Source: Bacteroidales bacterium
GTDB lineage: Bacteria; Bacteroidota; Bacteroidia; Bacteroidales; F082
Assembly (NCBI GenBank): GCA_045613185.1
Contig: JAZLAL010000136.1
Coordinates: forward strand, 1-10,573
Direction of reading: 5' to 3'
Length of the DNA stretch: 10,573 bases
The notes under the pieces were generated by a model, which saw only the letters and a list, made by a program, of their open reading frames with translations, did no database searches and was not told the DNA's origin. A program made the translations under genes and the position numbers. Below are positions 1 through 8,740 of this stretch, piece by piece; the stretch's first letter is position 1, and each line of letters begins with the position of its first letter.

Positions 1-179
1 ATGTGGCTGTGCACTCTCCGTGCATGTACCTCATACTGTTCAAGTGTGGGGCATTGTATCGTTTATTTCAGCTTAGGTCTTTCCACAACCTTCTAACAAA
101 TAAACGTGAAGCAACTCCACACTTTCTTTTTTTTATAAACATTATAATCCTTTGGAGTTGGGGTGTTTGTAAAAATGAT

Positions 180-1280
180 ATGAACATAGTAGATGTTGTC
201 AAATGGGAGGTAAACACAAAAGAATTAGTTCATAAGTTTGAATCAGATTCATTGCGTCTTGGTTCGCAACTTGTTGTTTATCCAAGTCAGACTGCCTTAT
301 TCGTCAAAGGAGGTGTTATCGCTGATGAGTTTCAAAGCGGCACATACACAATAAAATCCGAAAACATTCCGATTCTTGGAAAACTGATAAACATACCTTT
401 CAATAGTGAAAGTCCTTTCAAAGCTGAGGTTTGGTTTGTCAATCAAATATCTAAACTTGACTTAGCATGGGGAACGCCACAACCAATACAAATTGAAGAT
501 CCAAAATACAATATAATTGTACCAATTAGAGCACATGGACAATATGGTATTCGTATAAGTCAGCCAAGATTATTTTTGGAAAGTTTAATTGGCAACATGC
601 ACACTTTTGGACAGGAACAAATAGAACATTATTTCAAAGGAAGAATAATAACCAATCTTAACACTATATTGACCCAACAAATCATAGAGAAAAAAGTTTC
701 TGTTCTTGATATAAATACACAATTGGTATTATTATCAGAAGAATGTAATAATCTGTTAAATATCCAATTGCAAAAATATGGAATAAGCATTATAGACTTC
801 TCTATAATGTCAATAACAGTCCCACAAGATGATGAAAGTGTTATTAAACTTAAAAATGCAAAAGATATCGCAGCTAGATTGAATATTACAGGACGAGATG
901 TATATCAAATGGAACGTTCATTTGACATTCTTGAAAAAGCTGCAGCCAATGAGGGTGTAGGAGGACAGATGATGGGAATGGGTGTAGGATTAGGTGCAGG
1001 GGTTAGCGTTGGAACTACTATAGGAAATATCGCAGGACAAATGATTAACACAACCCCACCACCATTACCTTCACAGGATGTTAAAAAATATTACCTTTAT
1101 ATAAATGGAGAGCAGATACCAAATCTATCATTACAACAAATAGAAGAGTATGTAATAAATGGGGCGGTAACTCACGAAACACTCGCATGGACAATCGGCA
1201 TGTCTGAATGGGCAAAAATATCTGACATACCTGAATTACGCAATCTATTAGGCGGTATTACGCCACCACCTATCAAATAA
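180..1280 (+). CDS. SPFH/Band-7 superfamily protein (Band_7_1-like) with Gly/Met-rich linker and C-terminal DUF4339 (GYF-like) domain
   Basis: The frame is open from nt 3, but the first ATG is at 180 (MNIVDVVKWEV...), and the translation of 3-179 is low-complexity with no coding look. The N-terminal ~260 aa carry the SPFH/Band_7_1 pattern (VxWE...G..L.V.P.Q.A.F.KGG...F..G.Y.I.SENIP.L, AEVWFVN...WGT). The linker is EGVGGQMMGMGVGLGAGVSVGTTIGNIAGQM followed by TTPPPLP. The C-terminal KYYLYINGEQIPNLSLQQIEEYVINGAVTHETLAWTIGMSEWAKISDIPELRNLL matches the DUF4339 consensus (W..GM..W....D.PEL). The stop TAA is at 1278-1280. Confidence 0.75.
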   Translation: MNIVDVVKWEVNTKELVHKFESDSLRLGSQLVVYPSQTALFVKGGVIADEFQSGTYTIKSENIPILGKLINIPFNSESPFKAEVWFVNQISKLDLAWGTPQPIQIEDPKYNIIVPIRAHGQYGIRISQPRLFLESLIGNMHTFGQEQIEHYFKGRIITNLNTILTQQIIEKKVSVLDINTQLVLLSEECNNLLNIQLQKYGISIIDFSIMSITVPQDDESVIKLKNAKDIAARLNITGRDVYQMERSFDILEKAAANEGVGGQMMGMGVGLGAGVSVGTTIGNIAGQMINTTPPPLPSQDVKKYYLYINGEQIPNLSLQQIEEYVINGAVTHETLAWTIGMSEWAKISDIPELRNLLGGITPPPIK

Positions 1281-1286
1281 TAAATT

Positions 1287-1634
1287 ATGAAGGCACTGAC
1301 TTTAAAAATTGGCTTAATAGTACTGATAAGTAATATTATATTTGGCATTCTAATCTCCAAGTATGCTGTATTTAATATATATTTGAATAGTGTGATTATT
1401 GCTATTACAACCGCAATGATTATGTTTGTTAATAGCACAAAGATAAAATCTGCCTTTAAATTTTCATTGTCATTTATATTCATTTTTGGCGGACTTGTTG
1501 AATTTATATGTGGATTATTTTCTAAAAGTTCTATATATGATAATTGGGCAATCCTATTGTGTACAATAATCACTATATTGGAAATAACACTTTTAACTAC
1601 AATAGTATCAATGTCTAAAAACAACAAATCATAA
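1287..1634 (+). CDS. small integral membrane protein (about 4 predicted TM helices)
   Basis: The ATG at 1287 lies 7 nt after the upstream stop, and the TAA at 1632-1634 lies 5 nt before the next ATG, which implies an operon. The translation has four ~20-aa hydrophobic stretches (LKIGLIVLISNIIFGILIS, IYLNSVIIAITTAMIMFV, FKFSLSFIFIFGGLVEFICGLF, WAILLCTIITILEITLLTTIVS). This AT-rich DNA also gives a 151-aa ORF on the opposite strand, so coding status rests on the operon context. Confidence 0.55.
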   Translation: MKALTLKIGLIVLISNIIFGILISKYAVFNIYLNSVIIAITTAMIMFVNSTKIKSAFKFSLSFIFIFGGLVEFICGLFSKSSIYDNWAILLCTIITILEITLLTTIVSMSKNNKS

Positions 1635-1639
1635 TAATT

Positions 1640-2695
1640 ATGAAATCATTAACGTGTGAAATGTGTGGAAGCACCAATCTTATTAAAAATGAAGGTGTCT
1701 TTGTATGTCAGTCTTGCGGAACAAAATATTCTGTAGAAGAAGCAAAAAAAATGATGATAGAAGGAACTGTTAATGTTGAAGGTACTATAAAAATTGACAA
1801 TTCTAATGAGTTACAGAATTTATACGAAATAGCAAGACGAGCAAAAATAACTGATAATATAGAACAAGCAGAAAAGTATTATGACAAAATTCTTGTTTGT
1901 GATCCAAACAGTTGGGAGGCTAATTTCTATACCGTTTATTACAAAGCGATGTCGTGCAAAATAGCAGGTATAGCCAATGCAGGTAACACATTAACACTTT
2001 GCTTGCCCACTGTGATTTATTTGGTGAAGACATATATACCTGAATCGGAACAACATGATATTATTGAAGAAATTTATGGTAAGATTATCAATATCGCTTC
2101 TATGCTTAGTGAAGCTGCAATGAATCATTATTTTGATATTGACATAAGTATCAGGGAAAGATTCGCACAGGATTATGTTAACAACATGGCTTCAGTTACA
2201 TTTTTGGTATATTCTTTAGGAAATATTATTGATGAAAATTGGGGAGCAAAAGAACAGTTTAACTCTGTAGCTTTATGGGATGCTGGTATTGGTTATCAAA
2301 ATAAATATTTTAGATACTTATTAGACCCTTCGCCGACTATAAAATCTATGGAAACGTATGCTGATAAAATAAAAGCATATAATCCAGAATATAAACTTCC
2401 TGAATTAAAAAACACATCATCAGGTGGAGGTTGTTATGTTGCCACTTCCATATATGGTTCTTACGATTGTCCTGAAGTATGGACATTGAGACGATACAGA
2501 GATTATACTCTTGCAGAAAAATGGTATGGAAGAACTTTTATTAAGATATATTACGCAATAAGTCCTACACTTGTCAATTTGTTTGGTGAAACAAGATTAT
2601 TTAAAAAAATATGTAAAGGTAAACTTGACAAATTTGTCAAAAAACTTCAAAGTAACGGGGTGTCTTCAAACCCATATAACGACAGGAATTGGTGA
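1640..2695 (+). CDS. zinc-ribbon protein (CxxC-x13-CxxC) with TPR-like helical region and a conserved C-terminal Cys-containing module
   Basis: The ATG is at 1640. The N-terminus CEMCGSTNLIKNEGVFVCQSCGTKY is a 4-Cys zinc ribbon. The middle region is helical and TPR-like (NLYEIARRAKITDNIEQAEKYYDKILVCDPNSWEANFY). The C-terminus is SSGGGCYVATSIYGSYDCPEVWTLRRYRDYTLAEKWYGRTFIKIYYAISPTLVNLFG, a Cys..ATxxYGS...CPEV..LRxYRD motif followed by a hydrophobic stretch. The stop TGA is at 2693-2695. Confidence 0.75.
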   Translation: MKSLTCEMCGSTNLIKNEGVFVCQSCGTKYSVEEAKKMMIEGTVNVEGTIKIDNSNELQNLYEIARRAKITDNIEQAEKYYDKILVCDPNSWEANFYTVYYKAMSCKIAGIANAGNTLTLCLPTVIYLVKTYIPESEQHDIIEEIYGKIINIASMLSEAAMNHYFDIDISIRERFAQDYVNNMASVTFLVYSLGNIIDENWGAKEQFNSVALWDAGIGYQNKYFRYLLDPSPTIKSMETYADKIKAYNPEYKLPELKNTSSGGGCYVATSIYGSYDCPEVWTLRRYRDYTLAEKWYGRTFIKIYYAISPTLVNLFGETRLFKKICKGKLDKFVKKLQSNGVSSNPYNDRNW

Positions 2696-2782
2696 AACTT
2701 ATCATTTATACCTAAATAACAAGAATGCCATGTTATGATATCATTTTTTTAAAACAAAAATGGCACAAAACACATATATTAC

Positions 2783-2820
2783 AAACAAAGACTCCCGAAA
2801 AATTTCGGGAGTCTTTGTTT
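2783..2820. terminator. bidirectional intrinsic terminator (perfect 18-bp inverted repeat, GC core GACTCCCG/CGGGAGTC)
   Basis: aaacaaagactcccgaaa (2783-2800) is the exact reverse complement of tttcgggagtctttgttt (2803-2820), with loop aa. This gives an A-run then a T-run on both strands. It sits between the convergent + cassette (ends 2695) and the - strand gene whose stop overlaps the arm at 2820-2822. Confidence 0.7.
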
Positions 2821-3929
2821 CACCCTATCATTCTGCTGTCATCAACCTTAAATTTATACATTCCTGTTTCATACGCAATTCGTCCAAGAACAATCCATTT
2901 GTTCATACCTTTTTCTTCCGCCCATACAGTATAGACTTTTTGAATATCTATAGGATTCATACGTACTTTAGGGGCATCCTTCCATTCTTTATTAGGTATC
3001 AACGCATTTGCTGCATACTCGTTTGCTTCTCGTTCTTCAGATCTTTCATTGTCATATTCAGAAATGCTTAACTTGTAATTTTGTTTTGAAGCATCTTTAT
3101 AATGTTTGTATATATGGCCAATCTCATGCATCAACGCAAAAGCAAAACTGTCAATCTTGTTATATCTTCTCGTTAAAATAATATATGGCATTCCATTTTC
3201 AAAATACGAATATCCATCAACCGAAGCCTTGTCTATTTTCTCTATTATACAAAAAGCTATGCCATATTTTGACAATATATTTTTCACTATAGTTTCTGTG
3301 TTTTGGTTTTCATGCAAGGCCTTGCTTAATTCGCTTACCAACATCGGCTCATCATCTCTTACAAATGATCCTTCAACAACAAGCGTCTTTGCTTTTGTTT
3401 CAGCCAATATCTTCCACGTCATCAGCATTCGCATATCTTGCCCTGTCTTCGCTGATTTCTTAAATTTACCAGCATATTCCAATTGCAACTCTGCTGGTTT
3501 AGGAAGTCCACAAATTTCTTTAAGACATCTAAGGTTTTCAACTGCAGATTCTGCCAACATCCCAAGTCTTTTAAGCAATATCTTCACATCAAACACCTCA
3601 TCATAAAGCTTCAATGCATTAAGTGCCTTTTGTTCCTCAACACTTTTTTGCTCTATGACGCTCATGTCATATTCGTATTTAACCTGCATATTCACTAATG
3701 AAATCGCAGAAATACCCAACGTTTCTTCAATCTTAGTAGCAATAAATTTAGTCAGCGTACGCTTTCCTTTTATAAGTTCGCAAACATGACACCTTTGCAT
3801 ACCTATCATTTCAGCAAATTCCTTCTGAGAAATCCCTCTTTCTTCCAACTCATACTTCAATATAGTACCAGGATGAGTCGCTATCCAAGTCGTAGTATTT
3901 TCATTTCTTGTTGCCATAATGATCTTCAT
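2820..3929 (-). CDS. HigA-type HTH (Xre family) antitoxin domain fused to ImmA/IrrE-family (COG2856, Peptidase_M78-like) zinc metallopeptidase domain
   Basis: The N-terminal THPGTILKYELEERGISQKEFAEMIGMQRCHVCELIKGKRTLT matches the HigA antidote HTH pattern (HPGEIL...G.SQ..LA..LGV....I..I..G.R.IT). The C-terminal half has the HEXXH motif in ALMHEIGHIYKH, typical of the ImmA/IrrE peptidase family. ATG starts are possible at 3929 or 3917. The stop is TGA at 2820-2822. It overlaps the upstream higB-like gene by 17-29 nt. Confidence 0.85.
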   Translation of the reverse strand: MKIIMATRNENTTTWIATHPGTILKYELEERGISQKEFAEMIGMQRCHVCELIKGKRTLTKFIATKIEETLGISAISLVNMQVKYEYDMSVIEQKSVEEQKALNALKLYDEVFDVKILLKRLGMLAESAVENLRCLKEICGLPKPAELQLEYAGKFKKSAKTGQDMRMLMTWKILAETKAKTLVVEGSFVRDDEPMLVSELSKALHENQNTETIVKNILSKYGIAFCIIEKIDKASVDGYSYFENGMPYIILTRRYNKIDSFAFALMHEIGHIYKHYKDASKQNYKLSISEYDNERSEEREANEYAANALIPNKEWKDAPKVRMNPIDIQKVYTVWAEEKGMNKWIVLGRIAYETGMYKFKVDDSRMIG

Positions 3930-4224
3930 TTATTTCAATTAGTGAAATCTGTATTCCATCTTCTGTCTCTTTGAACAGCAGCCGCTCAACTCTACCATTG
4001 ATTATTCTTACAGAACTCAACGAAATATATTTCAATTGTTCATAATGTAAAAAACTAAAATCTTTTAACTTAGACACATGCTCCAGAGAACAAAATAAGT
4101 TATATATATGCGTAAGTTTTGTTACGAACTTTTTATCACGAGCAAACTTCTTATATTTTCCCTTATTCTTACCTTTAAAAATAAGTTCTCTCAAATCATC
4201 ATCAAGTATTTCTACCTTCAACAT
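3901..4224 (-). CDS. higB: HigB-like (RelE/ParE superfamily, plasmid-maintenance killer) toxin
   Basis: The C-terminus FLHYEQLKYISLSSVRIINGRVERLLFKETEDGIQISLIEINEDHYG fits the HigB-like_toxin pattern (LH.L.GD..G.WS.RI...WRI.F.......I..IDYH). It sits upstream of, and overlaps, a HigA-type HTH gene. The first in-frame ATG is at 4224; the maximal ORF begins with TTG at 4233. The stop is TGA at 3901-3903. Confidence 0.75.
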   Translation of the reverse strand: MLKVEILDDDLRELIFKGKNKGKYKKFARDKKFVTKLTHIYNLFCSLEHVSKLKDFSFLHYEQLKYISLSSVRIINGRVERLLFKETEDGIQISLIEINEDHYGNKK

Positions 4225-4377
4225 AGATTCCAATAAAATGTTTTTGATTCTGGTGCAAAGTTAAAAATAAATTCCCAATAACATGGAACTTTTTGTTAGT
4301 ATTTTTTAATTACTATTATATTTTCACAAATAAAAGTCTTTTCTACAAATCGACAAAAGACCAATCTATTTTTTTCC

Positions 4378-4385
4378 TAAATTTG
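4378..4385 (+). promoter_or_regulatory. candidate Bacteroidota sigma-A -7 element (TAAATTTG = TAnnTTTG) upstream of rlmN
   Basis: This is an exact match to the Bacteroides-type -7 consensus TAnnTTTG, about 80 nt upstream of the rlmN ATG. I did not find a convincing -33 TTTG. Confidence 0.3.
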
Positions 4386-4465
4386 CACACTTCTCAACGA
4401 AGTTTTTACTGGACAATGACTGTTGTCTGTCGTCCATTGTCTGTTGACCTATAAAAATATAAATC

Positions 4466-5486: not shown

Positions 5487-5564
5487 GCTGTGAGCAATGG
5501 GCTATGAGCCGTGAGCAATCAAACAGAAATAACTGCTCATGGCTCACATCTCAAAGCTCATAGC
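5487..5564. repeat. long imperfect palindromic element with internal direct repeats (gtgagcaat x2; gctatgagc / gctcatagc inverted)
   Basis: gctatgagc (5501-5509) is the reverse complement of gctcatagc (5556-5564). tgagccgtgagca (5505-5517) pairs with tgctcatggctca (5536-5548) with one mismatch. gtgagcaat is directly repeated at 5490-5498 and 5511-5519. No T-run follows on the + strand. Confidence 0.5.
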
Positions 5565-5587
5565 AAAAAGTTCTTAGTTAATAAAAA

Positions 5588-6316
5588 ATGGCTGATAAAA
5601 ATTTCGTGCGTTCGATGTTCAACAACATCGCTCCTACTTACGACAAACTGAATCATATTCTTTCACTTAACATTGATAAGATTTGGAGGAAGAAAGCCGT
5701 CAAACGCATTTGTAAAAGTCTCAAAGACACAAAGACACAAAGTCTCAAAGTCCAAAACGCTCATGTTCTTGATGTGGCTTGTGGCACTGCTGATTCTAGC
5801 ATCGCTTTGGCAAAGGCCGGAATTCCTTTCGTGACGGGCGTCGACATTTCTGAAGGTATGATTAAAGTTGGTGAAGAAAAAATAAAATCTTTAAACCTCA
5901 ACAACATAAATCTCAAAGTTGAAGATTGCGAAAATCTCAGTTTCGAGGATAATAGTTTCGACTCTGCTTTTATCGCCTTCGGAATAAGAAATTTTGAAGA
6001 CAAGAAAAAAGGATTGAACGAGTTAAGACGCGTCTTGAAAGACAACGGACACCTTCTTATATTAGAACTTTCCGTCCCTCAAAATAAGATTTTGCTTTCA
6101 TTATACAAGTTGTATTTCCTTCATATTCTTCCTTTTATCGGCAAGAAAATCTCTGGCGACAGCAAGGCTTACACTTATCTTCCTAATTCTGTGATGAACT
6201 TTCCAAAACCAAAAGAGTTTATGGCAATAATGGAAGAATGTGGATTCAAGAACGTAAAGCAAAAAGCATTGACATTCGGACTTTGCAGAATTTACGAGGG
6301 ATTTGTGATTAGTTAG
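5588..6316 (+). CDS. menG: demethylmenaquinone / ubiquinone-menaquinone biosynthesis C-methyltransferase (UbiE/MenG family)
   Basis: The N-terminal VRSMFNNIAPTYDKLNHILSLNIDKIWRK matches the UbiE/MenG signature (F..IA..YD..N...S.G....W+). The SAM-binding motif is LDVACGTAD. The length is 242 aa. Confidence 0.88.
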   Translation: MADKNFVRSMFNNIAPTYDKLNHILSLNIDKIWRKKAVKRICKSLKDTKTQSLKVQNAHVLDVACGTADSSIALAKAGIPFVTGVDISEGMIKVGEEKIKSLNLNNINLKVEDCENLSFEDNSFDSAFIAFGIRNFEDKKKGLNELRRVLKDNGHLLILELSVPQNKILLSLYKLYFLHILPFIGKKISGDSKAYTYLPNSVMNFPKPKEFMAIMEECGFKNVKQKALTFGLCRIYEGFVIS

Positions 6317-6323
6317 GAGTTTG

Positions 6324-6483
6324 GAATTAGGAGTTAGGAGTTGTAGAGACGCGTCAATGTATCCTACAAAAATTAATACACATTGACACGTCTAATCAAT
6401 TAAGAATTAGGAATTAAGAGTTGTAGAGACGCGTCAATGTTTCCTGCAAAAATAAATACACATTGACACGTCTATCAAATTAG
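6324..6483. repeat. two tandem ~80-bp direct repeats, each with an internal 14-bp inverted repeat (agacgcgtcaatgt-N19-acattgacacgtct)
   Basis: Unit A (6324-6403) and unit B (6404-6483) are about 90% identical, and a partial third start (gaaattaagaatt) abuts the menA ATG. The inverted-repeat arms are 6347-6360/6380-6393 and 6427-6440/6460-6473. Each left arm carries the palindrome gacgcgtc. Together they fill the entire menG-menA intergenic space. Confidence 0.8.
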
Positions 6484-6495
6484 AAATTAAGAATT

Positions 6496-7377
6496 ATGTT
6501 AAAAAACATTAAGAAATGGTTTGAGATTATCAGGGCAAAGACTTTGTTAGTCTCGATGGCTTCTGTCATCATGGCGATTGCATTGGCTTTTGAAAATGGC
6601 GGAAACAATTGGTTGCCAGCGATTTTATGTTTGTTATTCGCCATATTAGCGCAGGCGACATCGAATGTTGTAAACGATTACGCCGATTACAAAACTGGCT
6701 GCGACAACGAAAACAGTCTCGGTCCTGACAGAAAACTCGTCAGCGGCGAAGTTAGTATCAAAACCATAAAAAGAGCCATAATATTATTAGTCTCAATTTG
6801 TTTCTTAGTCGGATTTAGTTTGATTTATTGGGGCGGATGGATTTTATTGCCATTCGGCTTATTGATAATCGCCGTTGCATTTTGTTATTCATTAGGTCCT
6901 ATTCCATTATCATACAACGCATTAGGCGATATCGCAGTGATATTATTCTTCGGAATTGTTCCAATAACATTCACCTATTATATATTAACAAAAGAAATAA
7001 ACTGGGGAATAATCGCGGCTGGTTTTTCTATGGGACTCGTTGTAGATGAATTACTTATAGTCAACAACGTACGTGACGAGATTGAAGACAAACAATTTAA
7101 TAAAGTCACTACGGTAGGAATTTTCGGAAGCAGATTCATGAAAAAAGTATTTTTATTTAATCCTTTGATTGCTTGCGGATTAGGATTTTATTTCATGAGA
7201 GGCATCTGCGATTACAAAACATGGGCAATCGCGATAATACCAATGCTGATTTATTCAGTCAGCGTTTATATCAAATTGGAAAAATATAAAGGCAAGCAAC
7301 TCAATGCATTATTAGGTCAGGCATCGCTGGAAGCATTGATTTTCGCCTTGACGGTCGTTGCCGTTACATTATTATAA
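6496..7377 (+). CDS. menA: 1,4-dihydroxy-2-naphthoate polyprenyltransferase (UbiA superfamily, MenA)
   Basis: The UbiA-family aspartate-rich motif is NVVNDYADYKTGCD. The 293-aa protein is polytopic, with at least 8 hydrophobic helices. The adjacent menG supports a menaquinone locus. Confidence 0.88.
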   Translation: MLKNIKKWFEIIRAKTLLVSMASVIMAIALAFENGGNNWLPAILCLLFAILAQATSNVVNDYADYKTGCDNENSLGPDRKLVSGEVSIKTIKRAIILLVSICFLVGFSLIYWGGWILLPFGLLIIAVAFCYSLGPIPLSYNALGDIAVILFFGIVPITFTYYILTKEINWGIIAAGFSMGLVVDELLIVNNVRDEIEDKQFNKVTTVGIFGSRFMKKVFLFNPLIACGLGFYFMRGICDYKTWAIAIIPMLIYSVSVYIKLEKYKGKQLNALLGQASLEALIFALTVVAVTLL

Positions 7378-7977
7378 TCATTCGTAAATCTCGGATTCTT
7401 CGACGAGATTATTAAGCAAAGCATAAACAGTAAGACCGGAAACAGATTTGATTCCGGTTTTTTTGACGATATTTTTACGGTGTGTTATGACAGTATGAAC
7501 AGAGATATTAAGCATATCTGATATATCTTTGTTTGTCATACCTTTAGCCACGCAAACCAAGACATCGACCTCACGATTTGACAAGTCGACGCTTTCGTTT
7601 TGAGCAGAAGTCTCTTCGTTATTATTCTGAAGGTTAAGTATTTTATTGATAACCTTCTGCTTATTGTCGTTAAGTTCTATTACTTCCTTAAAATTCTTTA
7701 AGATATTTTTGTCAACGTAAGAAGTTACAAGAGCCACGCGATTTATGTTAGGATAATTTTGCGTCATCTGCTTAGCAAAAGCATTAACCATATAACCCAG
7801 CATCATCGGATTGATTATCAACACATCTGGACTATGCACGATTATTTTATCCTGCAAATCTTCAATATTATCAACGACTGACGCAACAACAATTTGATTC
7901 ATATCATTGAAAAATGAAGACAATCCGTTGCTTATTATCGGCGAGCTTTCTGCTATGATTATCTTTGTGATTTTCAT
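7378..7977 (-). CDS. LuxR/FixJ-family transcriptional regulator with atypical (pseudo-)receiver domain
   Basis: The C-terminal LuxR/GerE HTH is LSNREVDVLVCVAKGMTNKDISDMLNISVHTVITHRKNIV. The N-terminal region has a CheY-like fold, but the acidic pair is ES (IIIAESSPI) and the phospho-acceptor position in VLIINPMM is Asn instead of Asp. The ATG is at 7977. Its stop TGA (7378-7380) directly abuts the menA stop (7375-7377). Confidence 0.85.
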   Translation of the reverse strand: MKITKIIIAESSPIISNGLSSFFNDMNQIVVASVVDNIEDLQDKIIVHSPDVLIINPMMLGYMVNAFAKQMTQNYPNINRVALVTSYVDKNILKNFKEVIELNDNKQKVINKILNLQNNNEETSAQNESVDLSNREVDVLVCVAKGMTNKDISDMLNISVHTVITHRKNIVKKTGIKSVSGLTVYALLNNLVEESEIYE

Positions 7978-7981
7978 AACA

Positions 7982-8632
7982 TTAACCCTCCATCATTTCA
8001 ACAAATGGAACAAGCACGCGTTCTTCCACCAAAGTATGACAGCTCAGGTCGGAAGTCACTTCCATAATGTCGAGAGATATTTCAATTCTCTCTTTTGGGA
8101 AGATATTTGCAGGAAGATATTTGATAAGGATATTCATCAAATCGTTGAGTTTATCTTCGATATTACTATGATTTGACTCAAATTCACGTATTGAGAAATT
8201 AGAAGTCAAAGCATTATTGCACAACGACTTAATATAAGGGAATACTATTTCTTCTTCGTATTTAAAGTGACTTTCCACCTCGTCTTTATATTCATTGAAG
8301 AAGCGATTTATCGTGTTGCCGAATCTAGCAGGACAAGCCTCGACGATACGTTTGAGATGTGATTCGATGTGAGGCAATCTCTCTTCGAGGTAATACTTAT
8401 GAGATTCTGAAAGATAAGACAATATCGCATTTGCATCTACAGACTTGATATCATCTTTGGTAGGAATAAATTCCGGATTGGAGTATAAGTTACAGATTAA
8501 CAGAAAGAACGACGGCGACACTTTAGCTTTTTCGCATACCTCTTTGACATTTTGGTCGCCGAAGCCGAGTTCAATTCCAAATCGTGACAGTGTGAGCATC
8601 AGCGTTGGATTTGAAATCACCAACTCAGCCAT
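7982..8632 (-). CDS. ScdA_N-like plus hemerythrin-like (RIC/YtfE-related) putative di-iron protein
   Basis: The N-terminal MAELVISNPTLMLTLSRFGIELGFGDQNVKEVCEKAKVS resembles the ScdA_N/DUF542 fold, but the GFGD site corresponds to the usual CCGG. The C-terminal half has His/Glu spacing typical of hemerythrin-like proteins (ESHKYYLEERLPHIESHLKRI, ESHFKYEEEI, HSNIEDKLNDL). The start is ambiguous: ATG at 8632 (chosen), ATG at 8671, or TTG at 8695. It lies 4 nt upstream of the regulator gene, implying an operon. Confidence 0.5.
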   Translation of the reverse strand: MAELVISNPTLMLTLSRFGIELGFGDQNVKEVCEKAKVSPSFFLLICNLYSNPEFIPTKDDIKSVDANAILSYLSESHKYYLEERLPHIESHLKRIVEACPARFGNTINRFFNEYKDEVESHFKYEEEIVFPYIKSLCNNALTSNFSIREFESNHSNIEDKLNDLMNILIKYLPANIFPKERIEISLDIMEVTSDLSCHTLVEERVLVPFVEMMEG

Positions 8633-8680
8633 TTTAGTATTTTCAGTAAAAAACAAGTTTGTATAGTTCATAATGTATAA

Positions 8681-8740
8681 TAAAAAATGAGTCAATATTC
8701 TATAAGCTAACGAGTAATACTTATAGACTTATTGACTCAT
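8681..8740 (-). terminator. nested hairpin followed by a T-run on the - strand; probable tRNA-Thr terminator
   Basis: atgagtcaata (8687-8697) is the reverse complement of tattgactcat (8730-8740). The inner pair is tctataag (8699-8706) / cttataga (8720-8727), with a 13-nt loop. On the - strand it is followed by TTTTTATTAT (the + strand 8681-8686 is taaaaa). Confidence 0.55.

Follow-up and report, generated by a model that had tools for sequence, protein, structure and literature searches.

Peptidase-containing antitoxins have been on record since 2009, when Makarova, Wolf and Koonin catalogued fusions of COG2856 and Xre domains beside RelE and PIN toxins and proposed a "three-component" toxin–antitoxin (TA) system in which the Xre antitoxin is a substrate of the protease (PMC2701414). 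A related architecture, PD-lambda-2 of Escherichia coli ECOR42, was validated experimentally as an abortive-infection phage defense (Vassallo 2022, PMC9519451). It comprises a HigB-like protein (A), a HigA-peptidase fusion (B) and a P4-antitoxin-like protein (C); the fusion is toxic on its own and is rescued by A, and C is needed for defense in E. coli. Antitoxins that join a helix-turn-helix (HTH) domain to an ImmA domain also act in phage defense in RosmerTA (Millman 2022, 10.1101/2022.05.11.491447; Ernits 2023, PMC10440598). Signal-activated cleavage of a repressor is established for ImmR/ImmA of ICEBs1, DdrO/IrrE of Deinococcus and CapH/CapP of cyclic oligonucleotide-based anti-phage signaling systems (CBASS) (PMC2701414, PMC6868357). 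For pairs of HigB with an HTH-M78 fusion, however, we found no solved mechanism in the literature. Here we analyzed such a pair on contig JAZLAL010000136.1 of a Bacteroidales bacterium (assembly GCA_045613185.1), a stretch of 10,573 nucleotides (nt) referred to below as the window. We conclude that it is a genuine two-gene module of the toxin–antitoxin type, in which the antitoxin has a built-in metalloprotease, and that the identity of its parts is near certain. The original prediction, made from the DNA letters alone, had pictured the pair as a candidate protease-gated switch from a class with a poorly defined mechanism; given the 2009 catalogue, the validation of PD-lambda-2 and plasmid members already annotated by the Prokaryotic Genome Annotation Pipeline (PGAP), the architecture itself cannot be called little known.

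The two open reading frames (ORFs) overlap on the minus strand, the small one upstream and the large one downstream (Table 1). An automated call extended the small ORF to a TTG at 4233; its homologues begin at the ATG at 4224, which we hence take as the start. For the large ORF, a start at another possible ATG, at 3929, would mean 369 residues (2820–3929). Nearly all homologues of the fusion, which form 318 clusters and in part carry the names HigA or ImmA/IrrE, have 365 residues, so that the ATG at 3917 is the likely start. The predicted overlap of 17–29 nt covered both starts, with the lower value belonging to the ATG at 3917. This ATG is built from the codons for Y103 and G104 of the toxin. 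In our toxin-side sample of 80 genomic loci with relatives of the small ORF, the overlap measures 17 nt in 67, 14 nt in 8 and 26 nt in 5.

The small protein escaped direct annotation. No Pfam, NCBIfam or PADLOC model matched it at E ≤ 0.1, and the gathering score of PF05015 (HigB-like_toxin; RelE/ParE superfamily) was not reached. It is a real conserved gene and no chance ORF, as it has homologues in 117 clusters at 90% identity and relatives in 207 species genomes. Its AlphaFold2 model (mean predicted local distance difference test, pLDDT, 88.8) has the beta-alpha-alpha-beta-beta-beta layout of the RelE type, and the top Foldseek matches of this predicted model were all toxins of the RelE/ParE superfamily. 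Two matches from other searches were set aside. A PHROGs glucosyltransferase (E 0.014) is noise, and hnRNP Q/R RNA recognition motifs in a PDB sequence search (E ~5e-4) stem from a short "LKDYAFIHF"-like stretch and are spurious, since the fold searches returned RelE/HigB only.

Profiles of the small-protein family reached further than the single sequence. A family profile collected 252 representatives out of 1.84 billion proteins, and among 30 distant full-length representatives, 12 matched PF05015 (best E 1.5e-11). The broader family profile hit GraT (6f8s_B) with E 0.007 and, in hhalign, a PF05015 toxin on a Tenacibaculum plasmid with 98.6% probability; this toxin itself precedes a 364-residue HigA-M78 fusion. 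Alignments of the family profile with a single Proteus HigB sequence and a single Acinetobacter PF09907 HigB sequence were not significant. Homology to HigB is hence supported through intermediate sequences, i.e., as transitive profile homology, and places the window toxin in a PF05015-like lineage. The HigB-like nature foreseen for the upstream gene was borne out by fold and by transitive homology, whereas the direct HMMER check that had been proposed for it failed.

Across 71 loci, toxin residues H60, Y61, E62, S71, R73, N76, E80, R81, H102, Y103 and G104 are invariant. H60, R73, R81, H102 and Y103 sit in an LH...SxR...R..F...HY pattern that aligns with GraT and with PF05015 members. Conservation of Y103 and G104 may come in part from the overlapping start codon of the antitoxin, although the C-terminal HY is kept in the Tenacibaculum toxin, where the genes do not overlap. 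Taken together, computation shows the 107-residue protein to be a divergent HigB with a RelE/ParE fold.

The large protein proved, likewise by computation, to be a complete HigA-type HTH antitoxin joined through a helical domain to an intact ImmA/IrrE (M78) zinc peptidase. Pfam HTH_3 matched residues 24–74 (E 1.7e-7) and Peptidase_M78 (PF06114, COG2856) residues 229–335 (E 8e-9; 35.7 bits, cutoff 22), both above gathering, in agreement with the predicted combination of a HigA-type HTH and a complete M78 domain. TIGR02607, the HigA model of NCBIfam, covered residues 17–87 with E 2.2e-11 and narrowly missed its cutoff (43.4 against 47.7 bits), so that the HMMER check proposed for the partner succeeded for HTH and peptidase and fell short for HigA. 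In a PDB search with phmmer, the best match of the HigA-like module was HigA of Proteus vulgaris (4mcx_A, E 2e-6), and its top Foldseek matches, obtained with the AlphaFold2 model of the fusion (pLDDT 86.8), were HigA/GraA antitoxins throughout. The module thus has a HigA-type HTH fold in the predicted model, and its gene lies directly downstream of a HigB-type toxin. The M78 domain matched CapP (7t5t); no solved structure found by Foldseek spans the entire fusion.

The catalytic residues H264, E265, H268 and E295 do not vary among 48 close homologues of the fusion, nor among 50 fusions that include plasmid homologues from Flavobacteriia, Gamma- and Betaproteobacteria. The predicted HEIGH motif is thus present in a domain that is not degenerate, and the invariance points to a protease under selection. 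The middle domain lies inside the span of the PD-Lambda-2_B profile and outside Pfam M78. It contains a conserved loop, G150-x-F-K-K-S-x-K-x-G-x-D...W168 (conserved residues G150, F152, K154, S155, T158, G159, D161 and W168), in which pLDDT falls below 50 at residues 153–159. This conserved low-confidence segment (residues 150–161) is a candidate functional or cleavage site.

The pair is conserved together, as had been expected, from both sides. In all 80 loci, the gene directly after the toxin encodes an N-terminus that aligns with the HigA part of the window protein. Our fusion-side sample consists of 65 metagenomic loci in which the DNA reaches far enough upstream; in 58 of them, the toxin directly precedes the fusion. 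The peptidase is less constant. Complete partners (n = 76) include 46 full fusions of 360–370 residues with HExxH, 26 plain HigA proteins of 95–150 residues and 4 intermediate forms, one of them a frameshifted fusion. In one locus (L058, positions 1002–2083), the fusion gene falls into two frames of 234 and 101 residues, the latter starting from HEIGH; this may be either a pseudogene or an assembly frameshift. A separate M78 gene was sought downstream in the short-partner loci and none is present, and the HigA-like module is the sole part common to the fusion and the short partners of the 26 loci. On a quick neighbor-joining tree of the toxin, loci with long and with short partners intermingle, which suggests that M78 was gained or lost repeatedly, and the invariant toxin residues are identical between the long-partner and the short-partner sets. 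With the HigA module as the constant partner of the toxin, the protease appears as an optional accretion on a HigBA chassis.

The seven fusion loci without an upstream toxin all belong to a subgroup with 38–42% identity. Four of them (L160, L163, L170 and L174) carry downstream genes instead: in L163, L170 and L174 the fusion is followed by a DUF4417-family gene (~250–285 codons) and then a ~140-codon gene, and in L160, on a 3.5-kb contig, by the ~140-codon gene alone. These genes may represent a different partner set of the same hub antitoxin. Another orphan fusion (L157, 3182–4739, minus strand) adjoins an AbiJ_NTD4-domain protein and a weakly TIR-like protein, a defense-type neighborhood.

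The region upstream of the toxin was compared among the loci, as a sigma-70 promoter scan of the window gave results no better than shuffled sequence. Bacteroidetes promoters differ, and we hence searched for TAnnTTTG, the Bacteroides -7 consensus. Of 79 loci, 77 have this box within the 160 nt before the toxin, with 75 occurrences at -30 to -40 from the ATG. Some 26 nt further upstream, at a fixed position in nearly all loci, lies a palindrome with the family consensus (A/G)TTCCC-N6-7-GGGAAT that covers the upstream half of the promoter. Arms of 7 nt are perfect (7/7) in 40 of 77 loci as compared with 4% of shuffled controls; the window copy agrees at 4 of 6 arm positions. A general repeat search of the window did not pick it up, as its arms are short. 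The half-sites covary with the recognition helix of the HTH: TTCCC occurs with MQxSH, TTACC with MQATH or VQPTH, TTATC or TTACC with MPAPN or MAASN, TTGCC with MPLSE and TTCAC with MSPSQ. The covariation holds for short and long partners alike. The classes are partly phylogenetic, yet such a pattern would be expected of a repressor and its operator. This supports autoregulation by the HigA-type HTH through predicted binding at the putative operator. At its other end, the operon is closed by a perfect hairpin that starts from the last base of the fusion stop codon. It folds with -27 kcal/mol (z -6.3; none of 200 shuffles folds as well) and is likely a terminator shared with the convergent gene at 1640–2695. 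A consensus terminator scan of the window did not report the hairpin, probably because its tail is too poor in T.

Table 1. Features of the HigB/HigA-M78 locus, in window coordinates
Feature	Position	Strand	Basis or remark
HigB-like (RelE/ParE-fold) putative toxin gene, 107 residues	3901..4224	-	stop codon 3901-3903
HigA-HTH::M78 metallopeptidase fusion gene, 365 residues	2820..3917	-	Pfam, PADLOC, homologue lengths
Toxin 3'/antitoxin 5' overlap, 17 nt	3901..3917	-	window sequence
HigA-like module, residues 1-108 (HTH helices 16-67, long helix 71-108)	3594..3917	-	phmmer, Foldseek
Helical middle domain, residues 111-217	3267..3587	-	AlphaFold2 secondary structure
M78 (ImmA/IrrE) metallopeptidase domain, residues 221-351	2865..3257	-	PF06114, Foldseek
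HEIGH motif	3114-3128	-	M78 active site
Invariant E295 codon	3033-3035	-	M78 active site
Bacteroidetes-type -7 box TAACTTTG (TAnnTTTG), 39 nt 5' of toxin ATG	4256..4263	-	upstream comparison
Putative operator, imperfect palindrome GTTCCA-tgttatt-GGGAAT	4271..4289	-	upstream-region comparison
Perfect 17-bp hairpin, from last base of fusion stop codon	2783..2820	-	RNA fold

A third conserved component was sought among the 80 loci and none was found; the two genes alone are common and the flanks vary. Relatives occur on ten IMG/VR viral contigs, nine of which carry the fusion, and a viral scan with the fusion alignment returned three loci, all already known. Fusion homologues are furthermore found on 43 plasmids across phyla, where PGAP names the upstream gene "HigB family toxin" or "RelE/ParE family toxin" and its partner "ImmA/IrrE family metallo-endopeptidase" or "HigA family antitoxin". 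The module shows genetic hallmarks of type II TA systems, namely two small overlapping genes, a putative autoregulatory operator and a patchy, mobile distribution, and we favor the view that the module is autonomous, horizontally mobile, type II TA-like and of the HigBA lineage.

How might such a module work? In our explanation, the HigA part would bind and neutralize HigB and repress the operon, as inferred from the plain short HigA partners with which the same toxin family pairs in about one third of the loci. The M78 module would be an add-on, gained or lost repeatedly, through which the antitoxin-repressor most likely comes to depend on a signal for its stability or activity. If the HigA part or the linker were then cut, in cis or in trans, the operon would be derepressed and the HigB mRNA interferase set free, resulting in growth arrest that could serve abortive-infection phage defense or addiction to a mobile element. 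For this explanation as a whole, we consider the chances to be even. Loci with a short partner, toxin residues that stay the same and the operator code support its HigBA core, and the invariant catalytic site together with the precedents ImmA, IrrE and CapP supports a signal-responsive M78 add-on. The protease-gated release step is proposed in analogy to ImmA/ImmR, IrrE/DdrO and CapP/CapH and is our favored, though unproven, hypothesis. A switch mechanism appears plausible; that the fusion would cleave itself is conjecture.

Several observations weigh against this explanation. In PD-lambda-2, the fusion is toxic alone, the HigB-like protein rescues and a third protein is needed (PMC9519451). 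A simple model in which the protease destroys the antitoxin and the toxin kills does not predict these genetics, which likewise do not fit a simple auto-inactivating antitoxin as in the original prediction. The fusion can occur without HigB, as in the seven loci above. The disordered loop at residues 150–161 is a candidate for a cleavage site, and the evidence for the family of the window module is computational. Curated HigB profiles of Pfam, NCBIfam and PADLOC all fail on the window toxin, and its active site would be equivalent to that of HigB by motif pattern rather than by residue-level superposition. Finally, obvious defense islands are absent around most loci.

We may also speculate on a more specific version, in which M78 is a plug-in trigger. 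One Bacteroidales HigB family has a partner with M78 in 46 loci and one that lacks it in 26, on an otherwise identical chassis of toxin, overlap, promoter and operator. As a self-cleaving antitoxin-repressor in the manner of LexA, the fusion might hence sense phage infection and set the mRNA interferase free, with the cut perhaps in the loop around residues 150–161. We put this forward tentatively and would sooner expect it to be wrong than right.

Alternatively, the polarity of the module might be reversed, with the HigA-M78 fusion as the growth-inhibiting effector and the HigB-like protein as its inhibitor, so that phage infection would unleash the protease. The effector could act by proteolysis of host targets or through off-target effects of the repressor. 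Toxicity of PD-lambda-2 B alone and its rescue by A (PMC9519451) speak for such an arrangement, as do the match of the window fusion to PD-Lambda-2_B over almost its full length and the invariant M78 catalytic residues. We nevertheless consider it unlikely. The same toxin family, with identical invariant His, Arg and Tyr residues, pairs with a short HigA in 26 loci, and there the small protein is no protease inhibitor, as its partners have no protease. Orphan fusions in 7 of 65 loci are hard to square with a fusion that is intrinsically toxic. Moreover, the PD-lambda-2 toxin comes from another HigB family, PF09907, and stand-alone COG2856 proteins were non-toxic in S. pneumoniae or E. coli (PMC4257102). 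A possible variant is that toxin and protease lock each other.

The module might also be an ordinary HigBA addiction or stabilization module in which M78 does not gate the toxin and which has no dedicated role in phage defense. The domain might then act as a platform for dimerization or toxin binding, degrade excess toxin or cleave an unrelated substrate. This would agree with a widespread, context-independent and mobile module that is found on chromosomes, plasmids and phage-like contigs, with short HigA partners that suffice in a third of the loci, and with the housekeeping neighbors rlmN, ubiE-like and menA-like in the window. However, HExxH and the Glu are strictly conserved across phyla, which would argue for catalysis, two related architectures have experimental defense activity (PMC9519451; PMC10440598), and some loci adjoin restriction-modification (RM), AbiH or AbiJ genes. 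In our view, this explanation is hence rather improbable. Very improbable is a mobile-element switch of the ImmR/ImmA kind, fused in one protein, that controls neighboring genes with the small ORF as an unrelated accessory: ImmA/ImmR, IrrE/DdrO and CapP/CapH all regulate other genes (PMC2701414; PMC6868357) and Foldseek matches CapP, but the pair has no conserved neighbor gene among the 80 loci, the putative operator sits in the promoter of the pair itself, the hairpin closes the operon right after the fusion, and the small ORF is present at 80 of 80 loci, overlaps its partner and has a HigB fold.

The genomic surroundings of the pair differ between loci. In the window, its neighbors are the housekeeping genes rlmN, ubiE-like and menA-like, and in the closest relatives (L001, L002 and L004; window 2696–4465) the pair likewise stands at the edge of a conserved block of these genes. 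Beyond the pair, each genome has different DNA, i.e., small lipoprotein genes, an AAA_14-DUF4143 ATPase or, in the window, an SPFH cassette, and the site next to the rlmN block looks like a hypervariable insertion spot. Just upstream of rlmN, at about 4405–4445 between genes, an imperfect inverted repeat, GACAATGGAC ... GTCATTGTC, was seen by eye.

The SPFH cassette (window 3–2695, plus strand) consists of three genes. The first encodes an SPFH/Band_7_1 protein that has a GYF_2 domain at its C-terminus, and the others a 115-residue hydrophobic protein and a 351-residue protein that combines a zinc ribbon at its N-terminus with a CFI-box-CTERM domain; none of the three ORFs matched PADLOC. The original prediction had placed cassette and pair in one low-GC block. 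The pair is indeed convergent with the gene at 1640–2695, but the cassette is beside it in 0 of 80 related loci and unique to the window, so that the association is incidental. The low-GC block itself is weak, as the guanine plus cytosine fraction of the pair (0.32–0.36) compares with 0.34–0.38 for core genes at 5500–8700.

A minority of loci adjoin RM methylase, AbiH, DUF2971 or AbiJ genes. One clade (L043, L046, L052, L056–L062 and relatives) lies beside genes for N6_Mtase/HSDR_N RM, AbiH-family and DUF2971 proteins. On the Tenacibaculum finnmarkense plasmid CP116296.1 (L091, 4057–5443), a module of an MqsR-family toxin and a DUF4065 protein directly follows the pair. DUF4065 presumably is a Panacea/SocA-type antitoxin domain; PADLOC gave no match for this module at E ≤ 0.001.

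The role of the ImmA/IrrE peptidase within TA antitoxins has been a question since 2009, and the genetics of PD-lambda-2 made it more puzzling. The window locus alone leaves this picture unchanged. Its family, however, is a clean comparative system, with related HigB toxins that have either a bare HigA or a HigA-protease fusion as partner and with a readable operator code. The toxin family is common in gut and rumen Bacteroidales and so far unnamed, and since the Pfam, NCBIfam and PADLOC models miss it, TA and defense censuses of these bacteria undercount it. If M78 were indeed a plug-in trigger, a mechanism would for the first time be defined for TA and defense modules of the Xre-COG2856 class, and the PD-lambda-2 genetics could be explained by a toxin and a protease that lock each other.

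Compared with known systems, the locus has close counterparts in architecture and distant ones in sequence. Canonical HigBA of the Proteus vulgaris plasmid Rts1 (4mcx/4mct) and GraTA of Pseudomonas putida (6f8s) resemble the toxin directly only at noise level, and the window antitoxin is longer by about 255 residues, which make up the helical domain and the M78 peptidase. Proteus HigB has DYH as its C-terminal motif, as opposed to HYG in the window toxin. From ImmR/ImmA, DdrO/IrrE and CapH/CapP, the locus shares the pairing of an M78 peptidase with an Xre-family HTH repressor; unlike these, it joins both parts in one polypeptide and has a HigB-like toxin as cargo in the same operon. RmrA of RosmerTA also combines an N-terminal HTH with an ImmA-type zinc peptidase and is a hub antitoxin for varied toxins with anti-phage activity. 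RmrA models match the window fusion in the peptidase region alone (residues ~218–318, E 3e-11 to 1e-7). The RmrT toxins are unrelated, that of phage Kita depolarizing the membrane, and PADLOC models of RmrT gave no match to the window pair.

The class of Makarova et al. has exactly the architecture of the window pair, a RelE-superfamily toxin with a Zn-peptidase-Xre HTH fusion, although it was catalogued without experiments and the Bacteroidales toxin family of the window escapes RelE/HigB profiles. PD-lambda-2 likewise has a HigB-type small gene directly upstream of a HigA-HTH::ImmA/IrrE fusion gene, and the window fusion matches PADLOC PD-Lambda-2_B (PDLC03982) at residues 15–360, covering positions 55–382 of the 402 in the profile, with E 1.7e-38. 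Its score, however, is 131 bits as compared with ~470–500 for proteobacterial B members. The small ORF gives no match to PD-Lambda-2_A, whose models matched both PF09907-type HigB toxins tested (from Acinetobacter and Paraburkholderia plasmids) and thus detect that type of toxin, so that the window toxin is not PD-Lambda-2_A. Nor is there a C gene at the locus, as judged from PADLOC on the three adjacent cassette ORFs, from the hairpin after the fusion and from the 80 loci, which share no third family. The locus is hence a relative of PD-lambda-2 that has another HigB lineage and two genes and stands outside that system as defined. Its architecture is already known, and the window locus is a divergent new example of it.

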